From: Marsupella aquatica
Lineage: Eukaryota; Plantae; Marchantiophyta
Length of the DNA: 64,000 nucleotides
Assembly: GCA_973895155.1 (NCBI GenBank)
Contig: OZ316894.1
Location: 9,771,440 to 9,835,439, forward strand
Direction: 5' to 3'
Both the position numbers and the translations under genes were made by a program. Each line of letters opens with the position of its first letter. Position 1 is the first letter of the stretch. The notes beneath the pieces were generated by a model. The model made no database searches. It was not told the DNA's origin and saw nothing but the letters and a program-made list of their open reading frames with translations. Of this stretch, positions 1,998 through 60,937 are shown piece by piece.

Positions 1998-3634
<1,637 letters not shown>

Positions 3635-9680: not shown

Positions 9681-10643
9681 AAACTGTACTAGTTTGCACT
9701 GTGCTTTTTTTCCATTTAAGGACCTGCCTGACCTGACTTCACTCATTCAGTCAATTCAGTCAATACAGAAATTCCTGATAGCGCTAAAGTAGATCGAGAG
9801 ACAAGGCTCTGTGGTTGTTTCTTTGCATGCTGAGCAAAGTTCAATTGGTATAGACGGTATACCTCTTGAGTTGCCAATCACGGTAGAATTTTTCGATTCG
9901 GAGTATCGGTAAGTTTACAACTTTGACTGAGAGAAAGGAAAGAATATGTTATCGATGGTCCATGGGAGAGTGTACATTTTACATTAATTTGCAATCAAGC
10001 TGGGACCCTTTATCGCAAGTCTTTCACAATACCTCTTCAAATTAATAGCTTTCGCAAATTGAAATGCATGTGTATTAAATCGGTGTGTTGTGGATATCTT
10101 GTAGTTCGTGCACGAGGAGAGGAATTTCGTAGATCTGGTGACCTCTTTCATCAGCTCTGAAGTAAGTAGCCTTGAGTCGACTCCGAAGAAAGGGACTTAC
10201 AATCTGTCCAGGAATTGTCTGTTTAAACTACCTTTCCGTAGAACTATATGTCTACTGCGTACTTTAACCTAGCTTGATTACGGCTCACAAAATATTATGA
10301 TTGTGTCAGATAACCTAGCTTGGCGTTGATTATGGCTCACAAAATAATATGATTGTGTCAGATTTCAATCACCGACCAATATAGTGTGATTGTTACATTG
10401 ATTGATTGTAATCAACGTTTGTCTCCCGGAAAGGCAGGACCGCCAAACCGGGCGACATTGTGGTCGGAAAGATATCTTATTCTAAGCTTTAAATGATTGA
10501 TTTTCTTATCAGAGTCACATTAACTATATATTCCAGGCAGCTAATTAAGCCACTTCTTGTTCTGTGATAATTTCTTTCCCATGCAGGTATTTCAGAATAT
10601 ATCTCAGAAACTTGCGTGGGGAACCTTCATCTATCCTTCCATC

Positions 10644-11573
10644 ATGTTTCAACCTCTACAGGAACCTCCAGGAGATCTTCTTCCTGGGCGCAACAGACAA
10701 TCTGAAACAGTAGTGCACAAATTCTTAATTCTAGACCGGACTTTAAAGGACTCCGATCTTGCGATTGCTAACAAATGGCGAGGGATAATTCTACCAGTAA
10801 TTCTGGTGGACGCACTCTTTGGCAGAGTGAGATACAATGCCCAGATTGATGTCAACCTGTCTGGAGCAACAGGCCAGAAGTTTATACTGACATTGAAGGC
10901 TTATCGTGTCCGTTTATATAAACAGTACAGGCTGAAGAACGCTTTCCAAATTCTTAAACTTCAAAACGCTCAGCCCGGAGACTCCCTGCAGATATTTCGT
11001 GAAACTGTGGGAATCAGAGATGATCCATTCCGTCGACATTTTACGTTAGAAATAAAGAGACAAAGACCCATACTGCAGTTCCCTGCAGACACTAATGATA
11101 GGTACATAAAAAATTGGGCCTTGATCATAACGAAGAAGTTGACCAACACAGTAAAATCGGGATTTGCATTCTTGCCAAAGGTGGAACTCAAGACACATTT
11201 TCCTGGTAGAAAGCGAAGGTCAAAAATCCCTTTGAAATGTTTTGACTTCCTGGATTCAAACTTAAGTTGGAACTTGACACTCCAGTTTTCCCGGGGCCGT
11301 GCGCACAAGCTTGAAGAGATGGATGAGCTTTGCAGGCATCATGGTCTAGAAGAAGGAGACGTACTGCTGATTTATCGAAGCAAGGAGTCGATGTCGACCT
11401 ACTGCATTGAAGTAAGTTACGTACATATGTTTTGAATTGAACTGAGATTTAACAGGCTGCTAGGCCTACGTTCTTGCAGCTGAAATCGGAAGGCTAATGT
11501 GCCTGTATATATGTTGATGCAGGTCGTGAAAAACGTTTACCTTCCTGATCTGAATACACCAATCACGGATTGA
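10644..11573 (+). CDS. Divergent B3-domain protein with two B3 repeats (REM/RAV-like); exons ~10644-11411 and 11523-11573
   Basis: Two B3-like units: RTLKDSDL..IILP..F..AQPGDSLQIFR and TKKLTNT..FLPK..HFP..SWNLTL..GLEEGDVLLIYR. GTAAGT donor at 11412, TGCAG acceptor ending at 11522. Start uncertain (acceptor at ~10586 upstream). Confidence 0.7.
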
Positions 11574-16890: not shown

Positions 16891-17204
16891 CCAGACAGAC
16901 CTCCGCGTCTCGGTCCATCGGTCGATCGATGGATCGACCGACCATGGAGCCCTCGTCCTCCTTCTGTGCTTTTCCTCCCCTGTTCCCTCGTGCTTTCTTC
17001 CTCGGGAGGAGGACGACCAGCTTCGAGCAGAATTGGGCGGAGGGTGTAGGGATCCCGCTTGGTGGTCGCTGGAGTAGACGTTCAAAGCGAAGAAGCTCGA
17101 GCAGGATTAGGATTTCACGAAGTTAGAACGTAGCTGGAGTGTTTGTGAGGATTTTGACAGGGAGTGAGGTCGAGAAAAGCGAGGGCAGCTTGCGAGGAGG
17201 CGCG

Positions 17205-20200
17205 ATGGAGAAAACTTGCACTCTGCTGGTGCACTTCGACAAGGGAACGCCGGCATTAGCGAACGAAATTAAGGAATGGCTGGAAGGGAGCGACACGGGG
17301 AAGAAGGTGGAGGCCATGAAGAAGGCGGTGATGTTGCTGCTCAATGGGGAGACTCTGCCGCAGCTCTTCATCACGATTGTGCGGTACGTGCTCCCGTCGA
17401 CGGATCATACGATCCAGAAGCTGCTCTTGCTTTACCTTGAGATCATTGATAAGACAGACGCGCAGGGGAAGATACTCCCGGAGATGATCCTGATCTGCCA
17501 GAATCTGAGGAACAACTTGCAGCATCCTAATGAGTACATCCGAGGTGCGACCTTACGGTTCCTGGCTAGGTTGAACGAGGCTGAGCTCATCGAGCCCTTG
17601 ATTCCTTCGATCTTATCAAATTTGGAACACCGGCACGCGTTCGTGAGGCGGAATGCTATATTGGCAATGACGGCCATTTACAAGCTGCCTCAGGGAGAGC
17701 ACATGCTCGTGGATGCCCCAGAGATGATAGAGAAGTCTCTGTCAGCTGAGCAAGATCTGTCGTCGAGGCGAAATGCGTTCCTGATGCTTTACCAATGCGC
17801 ACAGGACAGGGCCGTCAGCTACCTTCTGAGCCATCTCGAGAGCGTGGCCGGATGGGGGGACATTTTGCAAATGGTGGTTCTAGAGCTAGTCAGGAAGGTG
17901 TGCCGGACGAACCCTGCAGAAAAAGGGAAATACATCAAGATTATTATTTCTCTGCTCAACTCTCCGTCCCCCTCGGTCATGTACGAATGTGCTGGGACTT
18001 TGGTGTCTCTCTCATCGGCCCCCACAGCTATCAGAGCTGCTGCCAACACTTACTGCCAGTTGCTGCTTTCTCAAAGTGACAACAATGTGAAGCTCATAGT
18101 CCTGGATCGGTTGCAGGAGCTTAAGGTATCCCACAGGGAGGTTATGGTTGAGATGATTATGGATGTTCTGAGAGCCCTGTCGAGTCCCAATCTCGACATC
18201 AGGCGCAAAACGCTTGACATTGCCCTAGATCTGATCACCCCAAGGAACATTGATGAAGTGGTAATGACACTGAAGAAAGAAGTTGTGAAAACCCAGAGCA
18301 AGGAGCTCGAAAAGAATGGAGAATATCGTCAAATGCTCGTTCAGGCAATACATTCATGCGCTCTGAAGTTCCCCGAGGTGGCCAGCACTGTCGTGCATTT
18401 GTTGATGGATTTCTTGGGAGACTCCAACACCGCCTCCGCTGTGGATGTGGTTTTCTTCGTGAGGGAGATTATAGAGACAAACCCAAAGCTTCGAGAGTCA
18501 ATTATTGCGAGGCTTCTTGACACATTCTATCAGATCCGGTCTTCAAAGGTATGCACTTGTGCCCTATGGATCATTGGGGAGTACTGCCTGTCTTTGACAG
18601 AAGTGGAGGGTGGAATTTCGACCATTCAACAATCACTCGGCGAGCTTCCATTTTTCACAGTTGCTGAGGAAGGGGACTCGACTGAACAAGCAAGCGGTAA
18701 GAGCTCTACCACCCAGGGCTCTGCTCACCCACCGGCCGTGTCCTCTGCCTCATCTAAGCGGCCAGCTGTTCTCGCGGATGGAACTTATGCCAGTCAGAGT
18801 GCTGCTGCCGAGATCGCTGTTTCAGCACCCCTAAGTTCAGGTGCAACTGGAGCTACTGCCAATCTTAGAGCGATTGTATTAACCGGGGATTTCTTTCTGG
18901 GGGCCGTGATTGCCACCACATTGACAAAGCTGACGTTGCGGCTGTCTGAAGTGCAGCATCAAAAGACCGTTGTGAACAAGACTTCTGCAGAAGTTCTTCT
19001 CATTTTAGTGTCGATTCTTAGGTTAGGACAGTCTTCTGTCCTTCCTCACCCAATTGATGACGATTCTTACGATAGAATCACTCTCTGCGTCCGAATTCTG
19101 TCTAGCCCTGATGATGTCATGCGAACTGTGTGGCTTAAGTATTGTCGTGAGAGCTTTGTGAAGATGATCACAGAGAAACAGCACCGTGAGACAGAGGAGA
19201 GTAAGGCCAAAGCGCAGGTGAGTAATGCGCAGCCAGATGATCTCATCGACTTCCATCACTTAAAGAGCAGGAAGGTGAGCTACTCTGAACCGATTCCATC
19301 ATACACTTGGATGCTCTTGAACTTATCCCTCTATTTAAGTCTTGGACAATAAAAAAATTGGTAAGTTGGGCAGTGTGTTCAGCCGAATGCAATTATCTTC
19401 ATGGGATTAATGAAACGACGGGACCTTGAGGTTTTCTTTCATCGAGGTTGAAATTCCCAGTATGAGTTTGCAAGCCTAATGAATGTCTGGCGTGCATATC
19501 TAGGGAATGAGCCAATTGGAGTTGGAGGATGAGGTGCAGAATGACCTGAAGCGAGCTACTGGTGAGTTCACCAAAGATAGCGACAACACACGGAAGCTCA
19601 ATAGAGTACTTCAGCTTACTGGGTTTAGTGATCCGGTTTATGCTGAAGCTTACGTTACTGTTCATCAGTACGACATCGTCCTTGATGTCACTGTTGTCAA
19701 TCGCACCAATGAGACACTACAGAACTTGTGCCTTGAATTGGCCACAATGGGGGATTTGAAGCTAGTTGAACGGCCTCAGAACTACACGCTGGCTCCGGAG
19801 GCTAGCAAGCAGATTAGGGCAAATATAAAGGTTTCATCCACAGAAACTGGAGTTATATTCGGTAACATTGTTTATGAAACGACAAGTGTATTGGATCGCA
19901 ATGTGGTGGTGTTAAACGACATCCATATTGATATTATGGACTATATCTCTCCGGCTTCATGCCCGGATGTTTCTTTCAGAAATATGTGGGCTGAGTTCGA
20001 GTGGGAGAACAAGGTAACTATTTTCCTTAAGTCTGAAATTAGTTCTTTTACAGGTTCAGCTCGTGTTCAAGGTTTTGTGCTGGAGACCCTTGGTCTCAAA
20101 TCACAGTCGTCAACTGTTTTTGAGAGAGGGTTGTATGTCCTCGAAATCTTCAAGGCACTGTTTCAGAGGTTTGGAATATGTTCCGGAATTTGCCCAATAT

Positions 20201-20851
20201 GGATATTGGTTAATTTGCACAGTAAATGGTTGTCACAAAAATCATTAGTTCTAGAGTTCTCTAACGTGCTTTTCTTGTTTTGTTGTTGTCTAGGTGGCTG
20301 TCAATACATCAATTCAAGATGTAACAGAGTTTTTGAATCACATCGTAGCGTCGACCAACATGAAGTGTCTGACCCCTCTGTAAGTCTCTGGTCCCAGCCC
20401 TTGTGTGGTAGTTTAGTGGCACCTGGATTTTATGGTTTATGGCTGCAAAGCGAAATTCACGATCAGCTACTCAATCTCAATATGATCTTGATGCATGTTT
20501 TCCTCTGATGCATATGACCATGTGGTTGGCACGTTGATAACTCGGGAAGACGTTGCTGATCTTGTCTGGAACACGTTTTGTCTGTATAGTTTTGTCGTGA
20601 TCATGTTGGGATGCTTACAAGATCTGGAGACCGTTGCTTCTTATGAGTGCAGGTCTGCATTGGATGGCGAATGTGGATTCCTTGCAGCAAACCTTTATGC
20701 AAAGAGTGTGTTTGGAGAGGATGCTCTTGTCAATGTTAGTGTAGAGAAGCAACCAGATGGCAAGCTTAGTGGTTATATTCGCATTCGCAGCAAGACCCAG
20801 GGAATTGCTCTCAGTCTGGGTGACAAGATCACCCTCAAGCAAAAGGGCTAA
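17205..20851 (+). CDS. COPB1: Coatomer subunit beta (beta-COP); exons 17205-19274, 19504-20013, 20294-20379, 20653-20851
   Basis: [14 protein letters not shown] start, [58 protein letters not shown]|[36 protein letters not shown]. All three introns are GT..AG and phase-compatible. Confidence 0.97.
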
Positions 20852-23834: not shown

Positions 23835-24791
23835 CCCGGTTTGAGCTGTCGGACAACTTGTCGTGTTGTCGGACACGACAACTTGTCATTTGTCGCCCGA
23901 AAATGACCCTATTTGTCGCATATTCCTTCTTATGCCCCGGTCCGGCCCCGGCCCGGTCCGGCCCATTCCCTCCCCGACTCTTCCCGGCCCCTTCCATTCC
24001 CGGCTCGGTCCGGCACCCGGCTCGGCCCGGCCCCGCATCCCGCCCGGCCCCGCACCCGGCCCGGCCTCACAAACACTAGGTGAGGGCGGGCCGAGTGCGG
24101 GGCCGGGCGGGATGCGGGACCGGGCCGGGAAGGGGCAGGGCCGGGAAGGGAAGGGGCAGGGCCGGGAATGGAAGGGGCCGGGCCGGGAAGGGGCAGGGCC
24201 AGGAATGGAAGGGGCCGGGAATGGGAGGGGCCGGGCCGGGCCGGGAAGGGACCGGGCCGGGAAGGGGAAGGGACCGGGCGGGATATACACAGGGAAGGGG
24301 CAGGGCCGGGAAGGGGCAGGGCCGGGAATGGAAGGGGCCGGGAAGGGACCGGGCCGGGAAGGGACCGGGCGGGATATACACAGGGAAGGGCAGGGCCGGG
24401 AAGGGGCAGGGCCGGGAATGGAAGGGGCCAGGCCGGGAAGGGGCAGGGCCGGGAATGGAACGGGCCGGGAAGGGGCAGGGCCGGGAAGGGAAGGGGCCGG
24501 GCCGGGAAGGGAAGGGGCCGGGCCGGGAAGGGACCGGGCTGGGAAGGGGAAGGGACCCGGCCACATATACACAGGCCGGGAGAGGGGTGCCGATTCCAAA
24601 TACACGAGCCGGGCCGGGATTTTCTGGTCGCGGCGGGCCGGGCCGGGACGGAACCGGGTAACATTCCGGGGATAGTAGCCGGGCCGGGAATTACCGGCTG
24701 GGAGCCGGACCGGGGACCGGGGTGGACCGGGTGACAACTTGTCGGTTGTCGAGTCCAAAGGCCTCTATTTGTCGGACAAGTCCAAACCGGG
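23835..24791. mobile_element. Non-autonomous TIR DNA transposon, very GC-rich, 8-bp TSD (hAT-like TSD length)
   Basis: TTTTGGAT at 23827-23834 and 24792-24799. Ends CCCGGTTTG.. / ..CAAACCGGG with subterminal GACAACTTGTC palindromes. Interior of GGGCCGGGAAGGG repeats, with a C-rich arm at ~23935-24065 and a G-rich arm at ~24080-24730. Confidence 0.85.
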
Positions 24792-28152: not shown

Positions 28153-28886
28153 CATTTCCATATACATAGATAACACCCTGCAATAGGTCTTATTTGTTCA
28201 CATGTTCGCTCTTCCATTGATTTGCAATGCAACCACATGAGTATACAGATACATATGAACATAGATATATTGACGCCATATGAACAATTTGGTTATCAAG
28301 CCTTTAGTAAAAACATTGACATAGGATTTCACATATGATAGCTATCAATATAGTTAAAGAACGTAAATTTCCTTTGTGACAGTAAAAGATTGCCCTTGCT
28401 TACAGGTTAGAATGCTTAGCTACGCTATTACCCAGGTGACACTACTTTGTGACTGGGTCTCTACTGGGTGATAGTATTACTCTGATTCTGTGTCCACAGC
28501 ATTCAACATATGCCATAATCCCTCTCCAGGAATAGACGGGCGATATCTATTCACACCTCCAGTGTCTTTGTTCAACCCCCGCCACTGGAGTGAGATCGTA
28601 TTTCAATCATATGATTTCGCGTCCCATGTTTCTGCAGCAATGTCTAGACGGCTGCGGGGAGACATGGGTCGGAAAGAGGCAAGCCACCACAGTTGTCTAT
28701 TTATTCTAAATTGTCATTTGTTCATACAGAGGCAACATTCAGACATCCAAGTAATTTTGCACAAACATTCTAGATATGCAGCTATGTGTCTACGATGTAG
28801 CACCTGAAGTGGTTGAGAGCTCATTGTGAGCACGAGCGATTGTCAGCTGGATGTTGGTGATTCAGTTGCTCGCTGCACGTTCTCCT

Positions 28887-29598
28887 TGTCGTGACATATA
28901 GTATCGTAGCCATAGTGTATCGAAAACATACAAGTCACCGGCAATGCATATGTGCAAGCTGCTAGCAACCAACATCCTGAGAAAAATTCCAATCACATTC
29001 ACAAGTGCCAAGAAAAAGCAACTGAGGTGGTATGTACGTAGTGGAGGTGTAAACCTCTGTATATAAAAGGCGTAAGAGAAACAATTGTACTGAAATTGAA
29101 TTGTAAACCGGCAGGATGCCAAGATCGGCCGGGAGCATCTAACGAATCACTGTGTGAATCCCGTGTACGGAACCGACGAGCACTGTCTGAGCTCTGTCAA
29201 CAGCGATTCAAGAAGAACTAAAAATGGCAAAGAAATACATGCCCTAAGTAGGACCGGGTCCAGGCGTCACACTAACAAACACCTTTGCTTCAAGAACGGC
29301 CCAGACTCGCTACAAGAACATGACACTAACTCAAGTAGTACACTAGCCCTAACTATATACCTAGCGGGCATGCGAGGGACATGCCGATGTGCACAAGAGG
29401 CACTGTCCCTCGGCATGACAGCTGTCGTGACATATAGTATCGTAGCCATAGTGTATCGAAAACATACAAGTCACCAGCAATGCATATGTGCAAGCTGCTA
29501 GCAACCAACATCCTGAGAAAAAGTCCAATCACATTCACAAGTGCCAAGAAATAGCAACTGAGGTGGTATGTACGTAGTGGAGGTGTAAACCTCTGTAT
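28887..29598 (-). repeat. 3' terminal repeat block A1-B1-GC-A2 (A 176 bp, B 358 bp)
   Basis: By eye, A1 vs A2 differ at about 3 positions and B1 vs B2 at about 7, mostly C/T or G/A transitions. Confidence 0.95.
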
Positions 29599-29605
29599 CC
29601 CCCCC
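29599..29605 (-). promoter_or_regulatory. Polypurine tract (G7) abutting repeat A2
   Basis: Minus strand TGGTCTGGGGGGG|ATACAGAGG, ~35 nt after the pol stop codon at 29638-29640. Confidence 0.7.
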
Positions 29606-29655
29606 AGACCACAGCCAAAAGGAGGGCTGAAGAAAATTCAGGTAGCACGTGGAGC

Positions 29656-29790
29656 ACAGGAAGGGCAAAACCATAACCCTTCTGGCACCTGGGTAAGTTC
29701 AGGCCGAAGGCAGAAAAGATGGTACCCTCCATTGCAATTGTCACACAGCAGCATCTGGTCAGCATCATCAATTCGCAAACACACTTTGCA
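29656..29790 (-). other. PHD finger at the integrase C-terminus
   Basis: CKVC-LRIDDADQMLL-CDNC-NGGY-HLFC-LRPELTQVPEGLWF-CPSC fits C4HC3 spacing with the conserved W before the last Cys pair. Confidence 0.92.
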
Positions 29791-32700
29791 AGGGTAGTCC
29801 ACAGGTGGAATCCAAGTAGAAGTCACAATGGTGGGATCCAGGTTAGGCAGATGACAAGGGGCGCAATTCTTGGCATTGTCAACAATTGTGCGCCCATCTG
29901 CCCCTTGTAACTCTAGCACTCCAGACGGTCGAATAGTTGTGACCCTGAGAATAGTGTGACTGGTAGAGGTGTCCAGGGTGTCGTTAGCTTGCCGCTGCAA
30001 GTACACAAAATCTCCCGCAAAATCTCCCACTTCAAACTTCCTGACCTTGGGCTGAAAAGTGCCCCCTCGTGTGTGTGCATAACGCAGTGTGTCCCTGTGC
30101 TGGGCAATGGCCAAATTCTCCATGGCCATGGGCATAACCCTCCTGAATAGGGCAGCCCTCTCAAAGATCACATCAGACCAAGTCACAGCTGAATCCAAGT
30201 CTACCACCTGAAGCATGTGAGAAGCAATAGCAGAAGGTGGAACTGGGTGACGACCAAACAACAAGAAGTAGGGAGAAAAGTTAGACAGTGATGCATGTCT
30301 GGACATCCTATACCCCATGGCAATGTAGGGTAAGGCCAGGTCCCAATCCTCCTTGTTTTTGGTGAGGCAGATCTTTCGAAGGCCCTTCTTGCATGTCTGA
30401 ACCATGCGCTCTGCCAAGCCATCTGCCTGTGGGTGATCTCGTGATGTCCGGCGATGATCAATGAGAGCCTGATCAAGCAGCTCCTGGAACTCTCCTCTAA
30501 ACTCTGAGCCCTGGTCAATGAGACATTCTGCACAAGTTCCAAAGCGGCTGAGAACTTGTTGTAGGAATGCCTGGCTGGTGCTACGGGAGGTCTTATCCGA
30601 CAATGCCACAAGTTCTATCCACTTGGAGAAATGCTCTATCATGATCATGATGTAGAGATTACCCCGTGATCTCTACCCGGTGTGAGATGTGAGGGGTAAT
30701 TCTCCAGCCAAATCACATGACCAATGATAAAACATGCCCTGAATAGGGAGTGGATGAAGTGTGGGTTGCCGAGATGTGAAAGAAGTCCTTACCCTATCAC
30801 ACTGCTCACACCGGGCAATAACATCTCGAACCTGGCCATGCATGCCTCTCCAATGATAATGGGGGACCAAGAGGCTATAAGTCCTCTTAACACCAAAATG
30901 ACCAAGCTCAGAATGTACCTTACGGATAAGGCCAACGCTCTCATGAATGGGTGGAACCACCACTTCCCTGTCTGGCAAGCAGCGCACAAGATGATCTCCC
31001 TTCCACAAGTAGCGCTTGGACCTTTGCTGAATTCGGTCTCTCTGGGCAGCAGTAACATGGGTGGGGTACTCCCCATGCTGCAGAAATCTCAAAGTGTCGC
31101 TGTCCTCCCATATGTCCACCACAGGTTGGTCAACGATGTAGCATGGCAGCAAAGCAAGATAGGTAGATGCATGAAATGTAGGCAGGATGGAAACCTGGTC
31201 AAAATCCTGCCGTGCATCTGAGGGATCATCAGAGGCAATCAAAGGGCTGCGGGACATAGTGTCAGCATTTTGATGTGTCACACCAGGCCTATGAATTATC
31301 TCAAAATCATACTCCTGGAGTATGAGTGCCCAACGAGCAAGCTTGCCAGTAAGCTTGTCGTTGGTCATCAACCACTTCAAGGGCTGGTGGTCGGTGTAGA
31401 GAACAAACCTGGTCCCATAGAGGTAGGGCCTATAATGTATGACAGCCCACACAACAGCAAGGCATTCACCCTCATAAGAAGAATAATGACTCTCTGCCTG
31501 ATTGTTGCTCTTGGATGCATAGGCAATGACGTACTCTTTACCTTCCTCATCATGTTGGCCCAGAATGGCACCAATCCCAAGGGCACTCCAATCTGTGTGT
31601 AGCACAAAGACCTTGCTGAAATCAGGTCTTCTCAGCACCAGGTATTCTGAGAGCTTCTCCTTCAAAGTGGCAAATGCTGCCTCAGCATCTGTACTCTATG
31701 TCCAAGTCACATTCTTTTTCAACAAAGCATACAATGGGTGTGCAATGGTACTGAAATCTTTGATGTAGATCCGGTAGTAATTGCACAACCCAATAAAACT
31801 CCTCAAAGTGTGAACATCGGTAGGAGTGGGCATTTCCAAGATGGATACCACCTTGGCCCAGTGAGCCATGGTTCCATTTGGAAGAATGCGATGCCCAAGA
31901 TATACTACTGATCTGACAGCAAATTCACACTTCTTGGGGTGTATCTTTAGGTTCACCTTCTTAAGCCTCATGAATAGCTCCTCAAGGTCAAGTAGATGCT
32001 GGTCAAATCCTTTGCTGTGGACCAACACATCATCAATGTAGCATTTCAGAAACTCAGCACCTTGAAGAACCTGGTCCATGACTCTTTAATTGAAAGAATA
32101 TGGGCGCATTCTTCAAGCCAAATGGCATCACCAACCACTCCCATAGTTGGTTACTACCATGGAAAGTTGTTTTCTTGCGGTCCTTTGCAAGCAGCAAAAT
32201 CTGGTTGAAGCCTTGCCTTAGATCCACAAGAGTGAAGATGTCTGAGTCTCCAATGCTGTCAAATAGCTCCTCTGGCCGCGGCATGGGGTACCTGTCCTGG
32301 GGTGTGACCAGGTTCAATGGCCTGTAGTCCCCACACATGCGCTTCTCTGTCCACAATCCACTGGAATCCTTCTTTGCTGGCATCACTGTAGGTGCCACAA
32401 AATCTGATGTAGATGGCTGAATAAGACCAGCTTCATAAAGCTCTTGACACCTCTCATCCACCAGCTGCCACTCATGCTTACTCAAACGGTGTCTCCGCCT
32501 GAAGATAGGTGTTTCATCAGCCAACTCAATGGAGAACTGCATAGTCTTGCACTTACCCAAGTCCTTCATAGAGAAAGCAAAGTGACACATTCTCATGCTT
32601 GAGGAGCAAATTCAGCAGCTGGTCCTTCTGTCTTTTACTCAGGTGGTTGCCCGTGATAAATGTGTAGTTGGCAACACTAGGAATAGGACCTGATGTACTC

Positions 32701-32999
32701 GTGCTTGAAGAGCCAGAAGTGCCAGCCTCTCCACTGTCCAAGCTGCTAGCATGCTGCTGATAAGGTGATGAGGCCTCTCCAAGGCCTGTTGTACCTGCTG
32801 ATCCGAAGTGGTCCACACCATGAAACTCAGAAATAATGTCAGCCGCATTACAAGGGACCTCCTCCCCCCCAACACTTGGACTGAAGTGGTGAGTGTTGGA
32901 CAGAGGTAAGTGCACCTGGTCTGGATGCCACGCAGCAGCACTGTGGAGTGGTAGGGCTGGAGCTCCTAATGCTGGAGGAATGTACATCTGAAAAAGGAT

Positions 33000-33955
33000 G
33001 CAAGTGACCAGAAGCCAAGTGAGAGCATTGAGATCCATTACCCTGCCAAGTAAAGCATTCCTGGCCAGCCTGGTGATTTTGGTGTGACCTGTAGTACCGG
33101 GTTGGAAGCCCATAGCCCATTCTCTCTCCTCAGGACTAGGTTCATCCCATGTACCGGTAGAATGTTGATAAACCAGACCAGGACCATCACCCTGAAAAGC
33201 ATGTGCACCTGGAAAGGACACAAATGTAGGCCAAGCAGCACGGGGTTGTCCAATGGTATTGGCTGGATACCAAGGTGCTGGCTCTTGCCGTGTAACTGGT
33301 TGGCAAGAACTGTCAGGATCCAAAATCTGGTCCACTATGAGGTTAGTATCCCTGGATGTGTGGTGAATCTGAGCTAACTCCAACAAGGAAGGTGGTGCAA
33401 GGTTAGTCCAAAAGTTACGAAGACGATGTGCATAAGAACCACAATGCACTGCATCAATGAGAAGGGGTGGTCCCAAGTAGTGCTGGACCACACTGAAATC
33501 CTCTTTGACCTGTGGACGCTGGTCAAACTGAGATGGAGTATTCTCAATGATATAACCAACAGCAGGATAAAGGGATTGAGTCCAGGTGAGAGTCTGAACC
33601 AATGCTGTGAAAAGGCCAGAACGAGAATCATGCAGCCCAACACCGTGACCAGCAGCTGAAAACCCTTGGCATTCCCAACCAGCTATGATCAAATCAAGGG
33701 AGCCAAGAAGGGTTAAGTGCCGATGCTGGACAAGCTGGATATCTGGAGGAAAGAAAGAAAATGCAGACTTCCATGCACTGTGTGGAAACTGCTGGGGAAA
33801 TCGCTCTGAAAATTCCAGCAGACGAGATTCAGCCACTTGCCTTGCACCTGGATCAATATCCACATAGATGTACTGCTTCACCACCATGCCAAACTTTAGG
33901 AGAGCTTCCAGGCCTGTAGAAATGCCACCAAAAAGCTCAAGCAATGTAAGGCCAT
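33000..33955 (-). other. C5 cytosine DNA methyltransferase domain (DNMT3-like, unpermuted) inside Pol
   Basis: Motif I LELFGGIS, II YVDID, III DIQLV, IV IAGWECQGFS, V DSRSGLF, VI IIENT, VIII AHRLRNFWTN, IX EEREWAMGF, X RNALLGR, all in order in ORF 32553-34154. Confidence 0.9.
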
Positions 33956-36900
33956 CTGAAGGAGGAGTCCATGTAACTGGTGCGCTCAAGATTGGGGCTA
34001 TTGGTTGTCCATTATGCTGCCCAAGGTCCTCAAATTTGTGCAATGCAGCCACCAAAGGTCCATGGGCTGCTTGGAGCCGTTGTACCACCTCTGGTTGATG
34101 ATCCACGTTGCTGGAAAGTGCTGCTATACGTGCAGCAGCATGTGCAGTAGCCACCTCATCATCATCCTTCTCAATCCAATCCTACAATGGGTGGTTGACA
34201 TAGGTAGCTGTGTGCACTTCTTTCAACACACAGTGGTGAGCCATAGGTGTATGGACACCATGCAAATCAAGTGGAATGTAGCCCAAGTGTGAGCCATCCG
34301 TATGCCAATCAACTCTGTAGTATGCATGCTCATGCCAGTTGTCAATGGTAAAACCTGGTGGGAACAAAGCCTCCTGGCCAATGAGCACATCATACGTAGT
34401 GGCATTGGTAACCAAACATCTGACTAGGAAATGTAGTTCCTGATCTGTACCTCCATTAAAAGTGAGAGTGAGTAAAGTAGAACTCTCACCCACCACATCC
34501 TCCACAGTGCCACTAGCAGTCTGAATGTGCCACCTGGATATATTGCTGTAAATGATCAGTCAGCAGTCCCATCTTCTTGGCAAACTGAATGCCCAAGATT
34601 ACTGGTTGAGCGCCTGTGTCTAGCATGACCACCTGAGGAGTGTGACCCTCCAACTTGACTGCTGAATTCCTGTTGTCAACAATGGCAATGGTGGTGGAAA
34701 CTAAAATCCTATCACTAGGCACCACTTTTGGCAAATGATGAGGTACCTTGTGAAGGGAGTTAGTGTCCATGGTCTTCCCACTCAACAGCATAGCCAAGAA
34801 AGATGGAGTAGCGTGACCAGAATCAAGTGTAGCTCTGGTCACACAATCTGCAGCAATATTATCATCTCTACCACTAGAAATCGGTACTGGGATGGCCAAA
34901 CCAGTGGAAGCATGCAATGGAGAAGAAGAAGGTCCAGTATTTACATGAGATTGGACCTCCAAAACCGGTGTCACAGGGGCTGATGAAGAATGCAGTGAGC
35001 CCTCTAGCACTCTGATGACAGCTCTAGCATCTAGCTGTAAATCATGGCAATTGAAAAGTGGAGTGGTAAGAATCCTTTGTGCCATACCGGAGGTGAAATG
35101 CTCAAGCAGCTCAGGAAAAACAACTCCCTGTGAAATGTCAGCAGCACCTGGTGGTGGAATGGATGTAGCTACAGCTCCCTCCCCCCTCGCCAACAAGGTG
35201 CGCTCTTCAGCAAGTGTGAGTGGCTGAAAAGATTGGGGCATGACAACCCGAGCTCCCCTGGCTCTAGTCATAGGACCAGTAGCAAGACCATCAGCCTGTA
35301 CAATGCGGCGTGTGGGAGCAATACGGGAGGCAGCACTGGCCTGCTGGTAAGCAAAATAGGAAGGGCAGAATGAATCTGAAAATTCTGTTGTAAGGCCAGG
35401 CTGTGTAGCAGAGGACAGCACACACTCACCCATATGAGCATCAAATGGCAAGCCATAGAAAGAGCGGGGTATGGGTGCTGAACTGTCAGTGGTGCTTGGG
35501 CCAGGGATGGGTTGCACGTGACCAGCCGGTTGAGAAGGACCAGCAGAGGCAGTGAACTTGCCTTTGATGTTGGCAAGTTGGGCACGTAATGACTCAACCT
35601 CATGAGTCAGAGACTGGAGTTGAGTTGCCTGTGCGTTGTGAGCCTCCTTCTGAGCTGGTTGCTTCTGTTGCTGCTTGGGCAATTTGTTAGCACTGGAGGC
35701 TTTGCCACTGGAAGGAGGAGCAACTGATGCAGTAGGAGCCCTCCTAGCTAGTGGGGGAGTGGAAATAGGAGTAGGATGAGTGGCCTGCTGTCGTAGCTGC
35801 TTCCTCTCGGGGAATTTGGCAAAACAAACTGCCTCCAAGTGGCCCACTTTCCCGCAAAAATCACAAGACAGGTCCTCAGCAACAATATCATATTCATTAG
35901 CCTTGTGATTAGGGTTACCACAGTAGTTGCAAGATGGCAGCATGAAAGCAGCATGTGCTGGCTTGGTCTTGGAACCATACTGTGGCACATGGGGAGGAGT
36001 GGCCAGTGTAGGGGCAGCAGCCTGGTACCTGGATCGCGGTGGACGCGCAATACTGGCCTCATAATGTGCATGGGGCCAACTCAAGTTTCTCAGCAGTGTC
36101 ATAGACATTGAGCAAGGTGTAGCTGTCTCCAAACTCTGAGAATACTTGCTGCAACACTTGCAAATGGAGAGCTGGTGTGCCCTCCAATACGCGAAGATAG
36201 CGATGAGCAGCTTCCAGGTCAGTGATGCTCTGGGTGTCCTCCTTCAGCTTGAGAAGCCGGCGATACATCATCTTCAATGTTTCATCGCGCTGCCTCACAA
36301 AGGTGGCCAACTGCATGATTTTATCAGCACTCTTGATTGGGAATTCCAATTCAAGAACCTGGAAAAACTCAACCACTAGATCAGTGAAGGCAGGAGAATC
36401 AATGGTGGGAGAAATTGTCTGATGTAGCCTGTGCCAAGACAGTGGGAGTAACTGGCGCAGTGGTGGGAACTGGAGTAGGAGGGGAAGTGGTAGGAGCAGC
36501 AGCATGGGCTGCAATGGCATTCTGTAAGGCCAATTGTGAGGCTGCCACAATTGCACTGGCATAGGTAGGGTTAGGCAACTGTGTGACAGCAAGCAGCCGT
36601 TGAGAGTGCTGCTCATACACATCCAAAGCCTCATGGTGCACATACCTAGCTAGCTGCTTAAATGCAAAAGCATTTGTGAAATTGCTACCATACTTCAACT
36701 CCAATTCATAAACGACAGTGTAGAAAGTGGATTTGAACTCGCGTAAAGAGACAGTGCCTGGCCGACCGCTGAAGCGCTCAATGCGGCCAGATGAGTGGCT
36801 GGACTCCATGCTGTATGTCGGTGAAGCAGGAACAACCACTGATGCAGAAGGAGTAAATGGCAATGAAGTGATAGCAGGCTTCGGAGTAGTGGTGAAGCGC

Positions 36901-37975
36901 CCGCCAAATGTAGCAGAAGGATTGCGTGGTGTGGGTGCTGTTGCTGTCTGCTGACGTCGTCGAAATTGCAGAAATTGCCGAGATTCGGGCTCTCCTTGCT
37001 CTCCTTGCTCTCCTGCCTGGAAATCTACTCCTGAGAGGAGGGAATCGCTCCCCCCCTCCCCTCTTTTAATGTTGTATTGGGCTTCGTGCCCTCTCCTGGC
37101 AGTCGCTCCCCCTCCTCCCTGCTTTAATTCTCCATAGGCCTCCGTGCCTGGCAGAAGACTCCTGAGGGAAGGAGTCGTATGGACTCCCCCCCTCCATTTA
37201 ATGTAGCATAGGGCCTCGTGCCCACTCCTTGCTTGGCTGCCTCAGTTCTGTCTCCCTGCTTTCGCTTGTGCTTGGCTGCCCCTCCCCTGCTTTAATACTG
37301 CCTAGGGCCTCGTGCCCTCGTTTCGCTTCCCCTCCCCTCCTCTAATGCCCTGTAAGTTGGGCCTCGTGCTTGGCAGGACTCCCGAGGGGAGTCGACGTGA
37401 ACTCCCCCTCCCTCTTCAATTCTTCATAGGGCCTCGTGCCCTCGGTTCTCGCTCCCTCTCCCTTGTTTAATTGCAACGGCAGGAAGCTGGCAGCGGCATC
37501 GGGAAACGGCGAGGCAAAAGAGTGAGGCGAGATGAAGCAAAAATGGCCGGGAAAGGGAGAAGTGCCGAGGGGAGTCACTTGGCCGAGAACGTAAGGATGT
37601 AATAGGGGCTCGGTCCTATGCAGTCGCAAGGTAGTCGCGAGGTGGCCGAGGCAAACTCGCCGGCAGCCGTGGCCGGAAATGCAAAAATGACCCCAAAAGC
37701 AGTCGAGCAGTCGACAGCAGCAGGTCGGCAGCAATCGGCAGCGACAGTAAGAAGGAGCAAAGGAGTCGCGGGTGCAACCAGAAAAGGAACTCCGGACCCC
37801 TCGGGAGCATTGATATGTGTATACACTTAAGTATACACATAACAACATAAATCCATAACTTTCAGCTCGTCGCTCCGATGTTCGTAGAAGAAATTGCAAT
37901 GACTTCACCAGAAATTATCGAACCCGCCACAAGCAATCTTCTTCCCCTCACTGCCATCTCAAGAGTTCTTCTTGA

Positions 37976-38333
37976 ATAAAAGGTGTAAGAGAAACAATTG
38001 TACTGAAATCGAATCGTAAACCGGCAGGATGCCAAGATCGGCCGGGAGCATCTAACGAATCACTGTGTGAATCCCGTGTACGGAACCGACGAGCACTGTC
38101 TGAGCTCTGTCAACAGCGATTCAAGAAGAACTAAAAATGGCAAAGAAAAACATGCCCTAAGTAGGACCGGGTCTAGGCGTCACACTAACAAACACCTTTG
38201 CTTCAAGAACGGCCCAGACTCGCTACAAGAACATGACACTAACTCAAGTAGTACACTAGCCCTAACTATATACCTAGCGGGCATGCGAGGGACATGTCGA
38301 TGTGCACAAGAGGCACTGTCCCTCAGCATGACA
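37976..38333 (-). repeat. 5' terminal repeat B2 (half LTR) with TATA-like box
   Basis: Near-identical to 29063-29420. Minus strand starts TGTCATG; TATATA at ~38267-38272. Confidence 0.93.
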
Positions 38334-40530
38334 TCCTGCCAGTGCGTCGATCCTTTGCCCCTCACGAGCTGCTTGCCCTTTGTGCTGCCTGCTAGTGTTG
38401 CACAATATTCATGCTGCCATACGTTGTTGTTTCTCTGGTGAGTCCTTGTGTCTTTGTATACTGCAGGCATGTGGATCATATAGAATATTTTTGGCTATTG
38501 CTGCGGATGGCAGTGCCACTATGTTGGGTCATACTTTAGGGCAATCTTTTGAGGTTGCCTTATGCATAGATGGCCCGATATTCTGTGGATGGATCAACGG
38601 TTGAGATGGTAGTCATAGTATAGCGGGAAGCTTTTTGGGCATTGGTTCTGGATATTATGTACATGGTATCCTATGTTGTATACATATATCATATGTTTTA
38701 GGTATCATGTCTTTTGTATCATGCAGCTTTGTCTTTTGTATGTCCTCCTTGTTGAGGAAATGCATATTCATGCTAATGCTGATCCCGAGGCTGATGCTCT
38801 CCTCGTCAGCTTATTCTTTTGAGAGAGAGAGAGAGAGAGAGAGAGAGTGTTTGGACCATGGAACTATGATGATATGTACTTTTTGTGTTCATAGTTGAGC
38901 TCTTGGTGCGGTCGTGGACATAGCCCTGAGATGGTGAACCACATATCTTTGTGTCGGTGTGCTAGAGTGTTGAATGAGTGATAATTGTGAGACGTCATGC
39001 TGTCCGTTTTGATCCTACAAGATCTTAGCTACTTGGTGTTGGCCCAAAGTTGTTCAGTTTTCTTCACTATTTTCCTTGTACATTTAGCTAGAGGTAGCAC
39101 ACCTTGGAAAATTTATGCCAAAAAAAACACACTCCTTATGTGCGAGGACCCCGGTTTGGCCTTGACGGGCAAGTCAGCGGTCTGGACCCCCTCACCTGTC
39201 ACTCCGAACACCCGATCGTCCCGACCGCCTGGTCGCAACCTCGCCCCGACCCCACCCCAACGCCCCAACCCCAAACCGGGGGAGCCCAGGACTGGGCCGG
39301 GAAGTGGTTTGGGCGGGGAAGTGGTTTGGGGACCGGCCCGGGAATAAAGACAAATATGTGCCATTTTGCCCCTTTTTGATGAGTTTATACTTGGCCCGGC
39401 AGCTCAACGGGGGCCAGGACAATTGAGAAGACATAATAATGTTGTGGAGTAATATATGGTGGGGCTGAAGTAAAAGCCCTCAAAGTCACTCAGACGACAA
39501 CCACCCTCTTTGAACGGCAGTCACGCATCTCAAGCCACATTCAGGGGCGCATTCCACTAATTGAAAGCTCGATATCTGAACTCTGGATCCACGGACTGGT
39601 TGGTTAATTAATTGGGTTGTTCGATTGCTGTACAGTGGAGGGATGGTGAGAATGATGGTCGGATTGGATGGATATTTTTAGCGTTAACAGTGAACCTGCC
39701 CAAGTCTACCGAGCGATTCCAATGAGTGTCGGTGCTTGCATGCCGCATTACTAAACTTACGTATTGGGCAAGTCAACTTAGTTGTAGCTACAGGAAAATT
39801 GTCGATCACTGAGGTGAAGTTGCTGAGTAACTCCATGAATCACCCCGAAGCAATTTCCAATTGACGTTTTTAATTAGAAGGAGACTGGTTCGAGACTTTC
39901 GGCTTGCAAAAAGGTTCTGTCATTGACACTTGACAGTCGAATGGGGGCCCTCAAACGCAATCCTTTCCAGCTCTCCTCATTCATTTTCTCCAGCTGAGTG
40001 TCGCTGGCCTTCTCTTTTGTTGGTTTCTCAGTTTATCTTTCTCTCACTTGTAAAGTTGCTCAAGCACGCAACCTGACAACATCCAGTCGTTCGTGCTCGA
40101 TCAGTCAAGAATGTATGGATATATTCTATCATCCAGTCAGTACCAGCTGGATTGCTCTTTATTTCTTAGATTGTTAGCTAGCATTGTGTGAATTGCTGTT
40201 CTTGCTACAGTTTTGATTCATAGTTACAGATTTGCAAGTTTCTGAGGGCTGCTCGGGCCAATTAATCCCATTGTACGTCGATCATCCAGTGACTTGCAAA
40301 CCCATTCTTATCGATTGACTAGACTCGTTAATTAACCAAAATTTGGCATGACTGAGCTGAAGAAGCGTCCTTCGGGAAGGACGGTCGGGTTGAGTGACTC
40401 GAAAGCTGGCTGGAATGTACAGGCACCATCATGGATGGATAGTTTCTCTGTTAATTTACTACTGTGAAATCCCTTTCTCGAACTTCTTGTGGGCCCCTGG
40501 GGAAGGGAAAGGCGAGGAGTCAATACGCTT

Positions 40531-40584: not shown

Positions 40585-41313
40585 AACGAGACCTGGAATT
40601 GGAAAGCCAAAGGCGCTGTTGATGCGAAAAAGAGTTTGCTTCGAGCGAGAAAGTGTGAGCTGTTTCATCTCTCCAGCTAGCTGTGTAGCGGTGCTGTTCC
40701 ATTGCCAGAATCATGTATCAAAGCAGTGGCCAGCACCAAAGGCATAGACAATTGCGCAGTCTCCCCGATCTAGATAATACGTTCTTCACACCTGCGGAGC
40801 GCCTACTTATGCAGATCGTGACTTCCTTCAGACACTCATAATGGTTCCAGGGCTCAATTGATAAAGGGCTTAGGCTTGGATTCCTAAAAATCAATTGGTC
40901 CGTATCAATTTTTCCGACTAGTTTTCCTGAAATGTATGACTGGCAGTAGATTTTGCTACGTATGATCTTATTGTCCGACTAAATCTCAAATCAGCCTCGT
41001 GTCATCCACCGTATTGAATTGACCACCGATTGAATGGTCTGGAAAGCATATATATATATATGTTGTTGTCAATTCGATATATATTATCGCAATCAAGAGG
41101 ATACTATTATCTGGTCCATCTCGATCGCAATCGATGTTCCTTTCCAGAGTTGTTAGAATTGAGTTTCAATTTGATGATGTGTTAAGTAAGCAGTTGTGGG
41201 TAGCTCAGGAGGAGCCTTGGAATGACAAGGAAACAGAAGACTGCGACTATCACGGTGGGCTGATAGCTAGGGGACGTATCAATCGAGAGATTGAGACATC
41301 TAGTTGATCGGCA

Positions 41314-44300
41314 ATGAACAAACAACAGAAAACCAAAACGCTATCTTTAGGAAGACTAGCAACGCTGAGCACAATCAAGGAGAATCTGAGGGTCAAGACC
41401 ACGTTCCAAAAGAATGAGTTACCGCCGCCTTCTCCGAACGTACTCCTAAGTCGGCATCCCAACCATTTGAGTGGCTCAGGAGATACGGATTCAGCTCCCT
41501 TGCTCTTCAGTGCCATTTCTAGTTACAAGCCAGAGAAATCACCACGAGGTGCACGAGGAGCTGCAACTTTCGAGGACGACCACGACAGCTCAAATTTTCC
41601 TTCACTTAGACAACCTCCGCATTTAGAAACCAATGGAAGGCGAACTGAGGCACCAGCGGGCCATCACGGTCAATTGCTGACTTCCCCAAGAGGAGGAGAC
41701 AATGTACCTGATGGTCAACAGCAGCAATGCGCAGAAGATTCCGTGCCTGAACTCTTTCCACCGAAGCTACATCGATTGTTTCGCAGCAGTAGTGGGTCGA
41801 AAACTCTACAGCTAGAGCCTGTCACTGAAGCGGACCAGGAGGAGGAGGCTGATGGTCCGGAAGATGCAGACCATGAAAGGTTGCAATTATCAGTGAGGGG
41901 GATTCGTGAGGAAACCTTTTCCCGTACTTCTTTCAGATCCTCTGGTGATGGAGACGATTTTGGGGACCTGCACACGGAGGAGGATTCGGAGGACGAAGAG
42001 TACTGGTCAGTTCCTCCGACAGTCTCCGGCCTTGCAATCGACAGACGAGACCTTGCTACAGGTGGGAGATTCAAATGAGGCCCATACCTTACACCTTATT
42101 AATTTATTCATGCTGGTCTTTCCGTCACCTCTCTCTTCAAAAGAAAGGCCGGAGGTTCTTTCTAAATTCTGAAGGAATGTGATTCAAGAGTGAATGAATT
42201 GCAAGGGATAAATATCGGGCGGTGAGACCAGAAGTTTACATGATCAGAGAGTAAGAGAGAGAGACGGCCAAATATAGGCGTGCCATTCTATCTGGTTGAC
42301 GATCGTTTCGATTCAATTTGAACTTTGGATCCGTATCAGGGGTCCACAGGCAGTGGTTTTACCCCCTAATCACGAGAAATAGCACTGACTAAGTTATTCA
42401 GCTTTCGGCCTTAAAATGAATGTCTTAGCTACAGTTGCTTCTCCGTCTGTCCACAGATGAACTCTTCCATGGCAGACTTAGAAAGGTTTTGAGAACTGAA
42501 ATCACCGTAGGTAGCCCTGTTTTGTTTGATGTCTCTGTGTCAGCACCAACTTTTGTATCACGAGACTTCATCATTTGATCATACCAGTCTTATTCAGATC
42601 GACTTTGTGATGGCTGAGACGATGGCCGGTGCTCAATTTATGTTCTGAGCTGCACATACAAAACAGGTTTCCGTAGGATAGTTCTTTAGGTTTCCAATCT
42701 TAAATTTGGTCGACGTGGGCTGTGATACCAGAGGCAATGTTGGACTGGCTGTTCTAAACAGCTGGCTCCTCTTCGTTCCTGTGTAATCTGTGAATTTCGG
42801 ACGGCTGTGTACTTCAGATACCACTATATCACTTAATTAAATCCTCGCCCAGTGCTTTGTGACCCACAGTCAAGTTCGTTTGGGTGAATTCTTGCATTTT
42901 AAGATATCAGGCGTCTGAATGTGCAACAATTGTACCAATTTGAAATCCATGCGCAGGGGACAAATGGGTACCTCGCCATCCGGACCTGGTGCGGGTGAAA
43001 GGCTACCACCCATTCATCGCCGAGGCCCCGCTAACAACTCTCATGCATTTCGGCTTCTTGACCCCCACATCGCTCCACTTTGTGCAAAACCATGGGCCTG
43101 TCCCGCACGCAGCCTGGGACAATTGGACCGTGGAGGTCACAGGCCTCGTCACAACTCCCAAGACATTCACCATGCGAGACCTCCTTCTCTTTCAGCCAAG
43201 GCGTCTCCCTGTGACGCTAATGAGCTCTGGCAACCGAGGCAAGGAGCTCAGCCGGGTGGGCTCAAGCAAGGAGGTGGAGGGACTCAATTGGGGGCCAGGA
43301 GCTGTGAGTACATCTGTCTGGGGAGGTGCGAGACTACGAGATTTGCTCCGCAGTTGTGGGATTGCTGTTAGTAGGGCTAAGGGCCAGAAGAAGGGAGCCT
43401 CAAGGAGACAGTGTTACGTGAGATTTCTGGGTGCCGACAGATACGGCACAAGTATCCCTTTAGACGTCGCCCTGGATCAGAGCAGGGACGTCTTGGTGGC
43501 TTATGAGCAGAACATGGACCTCTTGACGCCAGACCAAGGGTTTCCTGTGAGGCTGATCGTGCCCGGGTTCGCAGAAGGAAGGAGTGTAAAGTGGCTTCAC
43601 AGGATTGAGATCTCTGATCAAGACTCGGATAATGACTACCACGCTCTTGAGAACCGAATGCTGCCGTCTCACATTGAGGATCTCGAAACTGCACTTTCTG
43701 ACGGTCTGTAAATTTCTCGTCAATTTTCCAAAGTGACATCTGAGATTTCCAATTCAACCACAGAGAGTTCAAAATCAGACCACCTAATGAGTAGTACCGA
43801 AAGAAATACTGCTTTTATTCACACGACTCGTTCGAAAGATGTGGTCGATTATGACTTGACTCTTTGTCTGCCAAACTTGTGATAGCAGGATGGATGAGGA
43901 GGCCTGAGTTCATGGTCAATGATATGAATGTGACCTCTGTAATTTCTTGGCCAGCTCATAACAGCAACATCTTATCCGCCAGCCCTTCAAATCCCATGAA
44001 GGAATATTCTATCAGAGGCTATGCTTATTGTGGTAAGCACACTCTCGAAATCATCTCTAACGTGGTAACTGTGGTGATTAAATGTTCATTTTCCTGGCCG
44101 ACAATGTGGTGCTCGTTGACCAGTGATACAATTCGCTGATAACGTCATACCATTTTAAACCTTCTCGAGCTTGTTTAGTTCATATAATAGTCCCATCAGC
44201 CAACTTAGATCGTTTGATTAGGTGCGCATCTCACCTAAAAATTCTTTTCTATTAAGCCATCGCTCTGAAGTGGGTTCTATTACTTCTTTCTGCCACGACG

Positions 44301-60544: not shown

Positions 60545-60937
60545 CATTGTTGACAATCTGTAGGTTATGAATGACAGCAATGTTGAGCATTTGAGCTATC
60601 TATGTGTAATAAACATTGCCATTCAATGGATGCCATTCAATATTACATGAAAACAATGCTCTTTGCAAAAATGCAGTACATTTGAGAGCCCTACTTGTAT
60701 GTCTTGGATCCCTACCAAATTGCTAAACTGAATATGATTTAAAAGCTGCTAATCTAGCCTTGTCTATCCCAAATTCTGAGAACTCAAATGGGTAATTGAG
60801 CTTCCAGGGATCTTTATAAGTGTCCCATGGGCGAAAACAAATGTTATCATCCCCAAGAGTCCTCCACACTAAGAGATACTTGTTCTGATTGAACAAAGTG
60901 CTCCCTGCCATGTCTACACATCCTGCAAAGTTGAAAT

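Follow-up and report, generated by a model that had tools for sequence, protein, structure and literature searches.

Cytosine methylation is the main brake that hosts apply to retrotransposons, and the reason why an element should carry a methyltransferase of its own has been a standing question since 2018. The closest described system is KnitGypsy-Dnmt3 of Klebsormidium nitens, which carries a DNMT3 in its Pol and has DIRS-type repeats (de Mendoza et al. 2018, PMC5890265), the split arrangement of the repeats being given in the legend to Fig. 4c of that paper. The passages of the paper drawn on here view the element as having been acquired within the K. nitens lineage. They also advance, as a hypothesis of their own, the methylation of cDNA by a retrotransposon DNMT, and they report that the Symbiodinium retrotransposon DNMT3s carry out de novo CG methylation in yeast. 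The streptophyte and dinoflagellate range was restated in a 2025 survey, in the part cited here (PMC12344493), and the corresponding part of PMC11244446 makes no addition on the range of retrotransposon DNMTs. Beyond PMC5890265, no earlier report of a land-plant or chlorophyte DNMT-retrotransposon, and none of split repeats together with a DDE integrase, was found in the open-access literature.

The window analyzed here is the whole stretch of 64,000 nucleotides from Marsupella aquatica. Its host had been called embryophyte-type in a sequence-only reading, and the UDP-sulfoquinovose synthase gene (SQD1, 1998-3634), with 93% identity to Calypogeia fissa and 80% to Marchantia paleacea, identifies it as a leafy liverwort. 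The window also contains a host gene for an Adaptin_N protein (17127-20508), which we take to be similar to coatomer beta, and a nitrate-reductase-like molybdopterin oxidoreductase with a long acidic N-terminal frame (41308-43711), some 3 kb away from the 5' terminus of the element described below. A Harbinger-type DNA transposon lies at 59566-61540 (DDE_Tnp_4 on the plus strand, Myb/SANT on the minus strand), a GC-rich array of 16/21-nt units with inverted arms at 23935-24700, and a 296-codon open frame with a weak match to a B3 DNA-binding domain (E=0.006) at 10545-11435.

The subject of this report is a decayed Ty3/Gypsy element on the minus strand (28887..38333) with a DNMT3-like domain in its Pol. 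By combining the domain, its relatives and the repeats of the element, we consider it probable, on balance, that an active DNMT, packaged because it is part of Pol, methylates the element's own double-stranded DNA in cis, before insertion.

Identity and fold of the methyltransferase domain

The DNMT domain (33000..33960, minus strand) is free of stops in the window copy. It lies in a 542-codon open frame (32553-34181, minus strand), in which the motifs of a C5 cytosine methyltransferase follow one another in the unpermuted order, just as the sequence-only reading had it. They are motif I (ELFGGI, 33921-33938), motif II (VDID, 33852-33863), motif IV (WECQ, 33666-33677), motif VI (ENT, 33537-33545), motif VIII (AHRLRNFWTN, 33402-33431), motif IX (EREWAMGF, 33105-33128) and motif X (LLGRVMD, 33033-33053), all on the minus strand. 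The residues characteristic of a C5 methyltransferase are all there: the Cys of motif IV, the Glu-Asn of motif VI, the Arg-x-Arg of motif VIII and the FxG SAM motif of motif I. The residue before the catalytic Cys is Glu and not the usual Pro, as in 109 of 150 relatives, Pro being present in 39 of the 150. The retained Cys, WECQ and ENT had all been pointed out in the same reading, and both WECQ and ENT turn out to be a trait of the family, not of decay. The Trp of EREWAMGF, by comparison, differs from the family, which has Arg at this place in 95 of 137 cases.

In a profile search, PF00145, the family in which the domain was expected to fall, matches it with 25.6 bits (E=9.9e-6), the curated cut-off being 22. 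A phmmer search of the PDB ranks DNMT3A first (E=5.4e-6), with DNMT3C/B next. The family profile, built from 69 members, finds DNMT3A at 3.8e-24, DNMT3B at 1e-19 and HhaI at 8e-8. The plant DRMs reach 1.3e-12 to 2e-10 with this profile and align only over a stretch at their C-terminal end, as their permuted motif order predicts. The AlphaFold2 model of the domain (pLDDT 93.9, pTM 0.91) has the class I MTase fold of the C5 methyltransferases, and all 31 Foldseek matches listed for it are DNMT3A/B/C (best E=1.8e-18, TM 0.70/0.84). In an Atlas search, a 57-member Streptophyta PF00145 cluster came out on top, with two phage clusters tying its score, and the identity was not resolved any further. 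An identity as a plant DRM was ruled out, since motifs VI-X do not stand ahead of motifs I-V and UBA domains are absent. Judged by its sequence and predicted fold, the domain is DNMT3-like and not DRM-like, as had been claimed: its motifs are unpermuted, and DNMT3A/B match it better than DRM, DNMT2 or the bacterial enzymes.

Structure of the element and its split repeats

The 9.4-kb element encodes, in this order, gag, protease, DNMT, RT, RNase H, DDE integrase and PHD, all on the minus strand. The gag region (35893..36809) has a zinc knuckle, for which the zf-CCHC match is only E=0.089, and two frameshifts. The aspartyl protease (34185..34800, DTG at 34612-34620) is split by a frameshift, and an in-frame stop (34182-34184) comes next. 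The RT (31699..32611, YIDD at 32029-32040) changes frame twice and has a stop at its end, and it opens near 32580 in a frame different from that of the DNMT. It is followed by RNase H (31309..31623, E=8.6e-39), by the DDE integrase (30403..30930), which consists of an H2C2 zinc finger and an rve core with an in-frame stop at 30673-30675, and by the PHD finger at the integrase C-terminus (29656..29790, E=4.4e-12). Four imperfect 58-nt repeats are present in the leader (37054-37461), and tandem repeats are found there or in the flanks of many related loci.

With three internal stops and five frameshifts in all, the window copy is dead; the stop at 34182-34184 and the RT frame change leave it unable to make the polyprotein. 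The position of the DNMT between protease and RT in Pol, as first proposed, is nevertheless borne out by the Gag-Pol proteins of intact relatives. The further proposal that the C-terminal half of the protease shares the DNMT frame holds as far as the frame is concerned, but in the window copy the stop at 34182-34184 interrupts it. In four public runs, the deep contigs have a sequence other than that of the window at all five frameshifts and at the pre-DNMT stop, so that these lesions look private to the window copy. Contigs without the element at its site occur in three of the four runs, and the insertion is thus polymorphic. In run X3, the element contigs have a depth of 1200-1700 and the flank contigs one of 15-17, a contrast from which no copy number is derivable and which hints roughly that the family is young and multi-copy.

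The order gag-PR-RT-RNase H-DDE integrase, the polypurine tract, the TG..CA ends and a target duplication in the 4-6 bp range are those of Ty3/Gypsy elements. Two complete identical terminal LTRs are not present, and an A-internal-B-A-B arrangement is found in their place. Repeat A1 (358 bp, 37976..38333) forms the 5' end and is 98.0% identical to A2 (29063..29420). Repeat B1 (176 bp, 29423..29598) directly follows the polypurine tract (G7, 29599..29605) and is 98.3% identical to B2 (28887..29062), which forms the 3' end. All of these lie on the minus strand, and the A and B pairs together have 10 differences in 534 bases. A 4-bp target-site duplication flanks the element (28883..28886 on the left, 38334..38337 on the right). 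At the B/A junction, the element ends stand head to head around a 2-bp spacer in the palindrome GACA-GC-TGTC (29417..29426), which would be the integrase attachment site.

The primer-binding position after A1 (37964..37976, minus strand) is, by eye, not of the tRNA type, as it is without a TGG start. All 13 of its bases are complementary to a site 157 bases upstream in A (38120..38132, minus strand), which would be both the self-primer and the 5' end of the transcript. This perfect 13-base duplex, for which the best of 1000 shuffles gave 10, also forms the outer helix of the predicted fold. At least 12 of the 13 pairs are kept in 14 of 19 non-redundant elements (0 of 19 for a control stretch), and relatives have other letters at two pairs, which covary. 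By analogy with Tf1, the element RNA probably primes itself. The self-priming position and the polypurine tract would then make B-GC-A the LTR of reverse transcription, and the integrated form would correspond to a two-LTR circle that has been opened at GACA-GC-TGTC.

Exact 4-bp duplications are found at seven independent insertions (the window, L010, L023/L035, L049, L057, L073 and L075/L076); L062 and L067 match at three of four bases, and L047 and L016 have none. The duplication of L070 was set aside as doubtful, its called end being only 61 bases past the PHD. The B-A-B tail was called in 19 of the 43 loci with at least 800 bases after the PHD, a count that includes duplicates, the window and one doubtful call. 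A short A-internal-B form is also present, and since L023 and L035 carry both forms at one site, the short form can come from recombination or assembly collapse. The head-to-head junction is on the 3' side in 12 of 28 loci. The mirror form, with the junction at the 5' end, was found in none of 20 loci, apart from one weak match with three mismatches. If a two-repeat circle were opened at random, mirror forms should arise as well; for the circle step, a directional rule is thus needed, and none is on offer. The repeats, the polypurine tract, the covarying self-primer and the 4-bp duplications point to integration from a circle.

Three other accounts of this structure were rejected. An assembly artefact is ruled out by the exact target duplication, the recurrence of the layout in independent loci and the reads of both filled and empty sites. 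Troyka elements have CG..CG ends, a 3-bp target duplication and animal hosts. DIRS, Ngaro and PAT elements have a tyrosine recombinase and are without a DDE integrase or protease, both of which are present in the window.

Relatives in the green plants

The fused DNMT is not confined to the window copy. A protein search gave 181 relatives of similar length, 120 of them listed, and 69 longer ones; a relative is encoded on 257 of 303 metagenome stretches, and 80 loci were taken for analysis. A wider search gave 721 clusters at 50% identity (E up to 1e-30), and although its profile takes in some flanking Pol, all 130 newly listed proteins have a DNMT match. The named carriers among the matches listed are Calypogeia fissa, Sphagnum compactum, S. 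magellanicum and Closterium, together with the chlorophytes Chlamydomonas eustigma, Monoraphidium neglectum, Scenedesmus and 'Chrzof1', presumably Chromochloris zofingiensis. Neither a vascular plant nor Klebsormidium is among the named records in the matches listed, and scans of IMG/VR gave no match.

All named streptophyte records with a readable order have the layout PR-DNMT-RT, and all named chlorophyte records have RNase H-DNMT-integrase. The second layout is that of the larger clade, with 47 of 93 tree rows and 87 of the 130 newly listed proteins. Gag-Pol proteins of the chlorophyte type (P0126-P0179, P0371, P0387 and others), in which the DNMT follows RNase H and precedes the integrase, are up to 3456 aa long. 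The DNMT is in the RT frame in 35 of 49 loci and in the protease frame in 37 of 49, and P0432 and P0499 are unbroken Gag-PR-DNMT-RT-RH-IN proteins. One locus (L029:3841-6968) has no RT between DNMT and RNase H and is a deletion derivative with its B-A-B tail intact; in another (L058:18873-20948), a second Gypsy element is present, which is a distant one and richer in CpG and CWG.

In a third group, the P-C/ENV clade (P0124, P0127, P0129, P0130, P0133-P0135, P0229, P0230 and P0232), the Gag-PR-DNMT frame stops before RT at a conserved place, which suggests a programmed stop or frameshift and a DNMT made at the level of Gag. Enzyme in such amounts, in this clade and its cluster members, would suit a DNMT that works in trans and has as its main target not the DNA of its own element but the host genome or competing elements. 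The benefit of such an action would be shared with copies that have no DNMT, yet the domain is kept, together with the remainder of the element, in all 80 loci, a set selected for the DNMT and thus biased, and in the deep contigs of four runs. The methylome of Klebsormidium is, moreover, ordinary in the account of PMC5890265 cited here, and we regard an action in trans as highly unlikely.

The best solved matches of the PHD are WSTF, CHD4, ATXR5, KDM5 PHD1, BAZ2B, UHRF1, PHF21A and AIRE. Most of these PHDs read unmodified H3, and the PHD of the element is predicted to resemble readers of unmodified H3 tails. It might act as the ADD does in DNMT3A, with the DNMT staying in the integration complex and, once in the nucleus, methylating both the new insertion and the DNA flanking it, so that the chromatin of the target site is the substrate. 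Such a role would fit both these matches and the place of the DNMT next to the integrase in the larger clade. It is unlikely, because RT and RNase H separate the DNMT from the integrase in the window element and in all its close relatives, and because one clade ends its Gag-PR-DNMT frame ahead of RT. Methylation of the element's own DNA before insertion is compatible with both layouts: in or adjoining Pol, the DNMT would meet the cDNA in either of them.

The DNMT tree, built from the 93 of 190 rows that have a cover of 75% or more, places the two layouts on opposite sides of one branch with a support of 99, and the RT tree of 31 rows has the same split with a support of 96. Twelve of 15 well-supported RT splits are also present in a DNMT tree of the same 31 rows, and the patristic distances of the two trees correlate with a rho of only 0.44. 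These trees, which are quick and unrooted, carry long-branch warnings and include retrotransposon domains only, largely agree. They fit one capture of the DNMT followed by a move within Pol, and horizontal transfer, or two separate captures of related enzymes, would also be compatible with them. The window DNMT pairs with a Calypogeia fissa protein in the DNMT tree (SH-aLRT 98).

The range of carriers and the matching trees argue against a capture specific to Klebsormidium. A fusion present in a land plant, in two positions of Pol and with matching DNMT and RT histories, speaks for a widespread and long-kept strategy, not an algal curiosity. It is possible, and we propose it only tentatively, that these elements form an ancient green-plant Gypsy lineage that predates the chlorophyte-streptophyte split. 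Such a lineage would be self-priming, would integrate from a circle with a DDE enzyme, would pre-methylate the circle with an active Glu-Cys/Glu-Asn-Thr DNMT3 and would have a PHD in place of the ADD of animal DNMT3. If so, the young polymorphic family of the liverwort would make the role of retrotransposon DNMTs directly testable.

Constraint, activity and comparison with known systems

Identity of the family DNMTs to the window domain is only 33-75%. After copies more than 97% alike were dropped (56 of 81 rows left), comparison of the window with the 55 other non-redundant loci gave pN 0.22, pS 0.71 and a median dN/dS of 0.12 for the DNMT (52 unsaturated pairs). In the same comparison, protease and RNase H have 0.10, RT and integrase 0.06-0.08 (mostly saturated) and two linkers 0.28-0.48. 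Among the related loci, the decay of most copies leaves only a weak contrast: the DNMT has a dN/dS of about 0.40 and the linkers one of 0.47-0.55, and the values of RT, RNase H and integrase lie at 0.32-0.43. Stops per at-risk codon are also similar (DNMT 0.14, RT 0.135-0.156, integrase 0.127). The DNMT domain is thus constrained about like RT, and the neutral evolution that the sequence-only reading had allowed for does not describe it.

The decay of the window copy and of nearly all related DNA copies, with only 2 of 56 counted DNMT domains free of stops, is what would be expected of a captured host-gene fragment carried as a passive passenger. The dN/dS near 0.1 against distant copies, the invariant catalytic residues and the division of both the DNMT and the RT trees by architecture already contradict this idea, unless the constraint is an alignment artefact, and it is exceedingly improbable.

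The catalytic Cys is kept in 149 of 150 relatives, the Glu and Asn of motif VI in 143 and 145 of 150, the two Arg of motif VIII in 126 of 142 and 123 of 141, and the second Gly of motif I in 124 of 125, each count referring to rows without a gap at that site out of 190 aligned. Both motif VIII Arg codons retain their CpG, although the CpG o/e of the domain is 0.21. The states of motifs IV and VI combine as E+T in 86, P+V in 31, E+V in 3 and P+T in none of 141 sequences, a coupling that is only suggestive, as there are just 2-4 independent pairs on the tree and a sign test is not significant. The cited part of PMC2965745 counts the proline of motif IV as invariant and predicts OsDRM3, which has lost it, to be inactive. 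DNMT5, according to the portion cited of bioRxiv 10.1101/2021.10.01.462825, is an active C5 enzyme with Ser in place of this Pro.

The E-C/ENT enzymes could be slow or inactive and be kept as DNA-binding or base-flipping modules that, for instance, hold or shield the attachment palindrome or favour circles. Glu in place of Pro in 109 of 150 relatives, mostly with Thr for Val in motif VI, would agree with this, as would the negative result of the Klebsormidium domain in yeast, where no methylation was seen and which its authors, in the passage cited, call inconclusive (PMC5890265). The Cys, the Glu-Asn, both Arg and the SAM-binding motif are all retained here, whereas the dead paralogues DRM3 and DNMT3L, as described in the part of PMC2965745 cited above, lose the motif IV dipeptide and more residues. 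The P and E states at motif IV swap at least four times on the DNMT tree, as expected of two workable solutions. A role in binding without catalysis is thus decidedly unlikely, and the E-C/ENT enzyme is probably active; in its Glu-Cys/ENT pocket, a motif that is often called invariant would then have a natural variant.

The base composition is also relevant here, since a binding module would leave no excess loss of CpG, and none is seen. The window element has a CpG o/e of 0.26 and the window's Harbinger-type transposon one of 0.20. For 31 related elements the value is 0.35, and for 17 flanks it is 0.21; at a single locus the order is reversed, with 0.29 in the element and 0.47 in the neighbouring Gypsy. 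Depletion of CpG and CWG, sought as a trace of self-methylation in the window, the 31 elements and the 17 flanks, gave no consistent signal. CpG depletion was rejected as a sign of self-methylation, being no stronger than in the neighbouring DNA transposon. CWG o/e is 1.4-1.5 in the transposons of the window host, which are thus not depleted, and 0.4-0.65 in Sphagnum-like loci, a contrast hinting at differing histories of CHG methylation.

If the DNMT acts in cis before insertion, as we prefer, the cycle of the element might be described as follows. The element RNA would prime itself, as in Tf1, and RT would yield a linear DNA bounded on either side by B-A repeats, which would then close end to end into a circle. 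Before insertion, the DNMT, perhaps freed by the protease inside the particle as the sequence-only reading supposed, would methylate cytosines on the double-stranded DNA copy, presumably in the CG context, judging from its kinship with DNMT3. The DDE integrase would open the circle at the palindrome GACA-GC-TGTC and insert its DNA, guided by the PHD as a predicted reader of unmodified H3 tails. The likely gain is that the new copy, CG-marked on arrival, would be treated like old repeat DNA of the host. Because the family has near-identical copies and empty-site alleles, methylation can be compared among free cDNA, new insertions and flanks. In bryophytes and algae, annotation pipelines may meanwhile count the retrotransposon domains among the host DNMT3 genes by mistake.

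Among known enzymes, the catalytic domain of mammalian DNMT3A/3B is nearest, DNMT3A being the best match in both sequence and fold. Identity is about 20%, and the window domain differs by being without PWWP or ADD and by having E-C for P-C and ENT for ENV. Plant DRM2 is permuted, and its score with the family profile is over ten orders of magnitude lower.

Self-priming has a parallel in Tf1/Sushi and plant Tcn1, in which the primer site is complementary to 5' repeat sequence and no tRNA is used (Neumann et al. 2019, PMC6317226). These are chromoviruses with ordinary LTRs, in contrast to the window element, and the word methyltransferase does not occur in that survey. Gypsy-7a_cRei and REM1 of Chlamydomonas likewise have a PHD finger in a green-lineage Gypsy; they differ in their ordinary LTRs, and no DNMT is among the domains given for Gypsy-7a_cRei in the passages cited (PMC9940879, PMC6673714).

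The Klebsormidium and dinoflagellate precedents named in the sequence-only reading are KnitGypsy-Dnmt3 and SymbioDIRS-Dnmt3, both described in PMC5890265. SymbioDIRS-Dnmt3 of Symbiodinium, as presented there, resembles the window element in having a DNMT3 in Pol, A-coding-B-A-B repeats and two positions of the domain in Pol, and differs in its tyrosine recombinase, where the window element has a DDE integrase, TG..CA ends and 4-bp duplications. KnitGypsy-Dnmt3 is closer. It has an unpermuted DNMT3-like domain in the Gypsy Pol frame, which in the relatives of the window element is shared with RT and RNase H, and it combines DIRS-type split repeats with Gypsy domains. Its DNMT is under purifying selection (Ka/Ks < 0.2), as is the domain described here, with 0.12 against distant copies. 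Set beside KnitGypsy-Dnmt3 as the main text describes it, the window element differs in having a land plant as its host. The sequence-only reading had seen the unusual part in an embryophyte locus joined with a permuted LTR and a PHD. The host remains unusual, but split repeats are present in KnitGypsy-Dnmt3 (PMC5890265) and a PHD in green-algal Gypsy Gag-Pol (PMC9940879), so that, being already in print in the parts cited, neither is new by itself. What is added here is that the lineage extends to liverworts, Sphagnum, Closterium and chlorophytes, and that its DNMT and RT trees largely agree.
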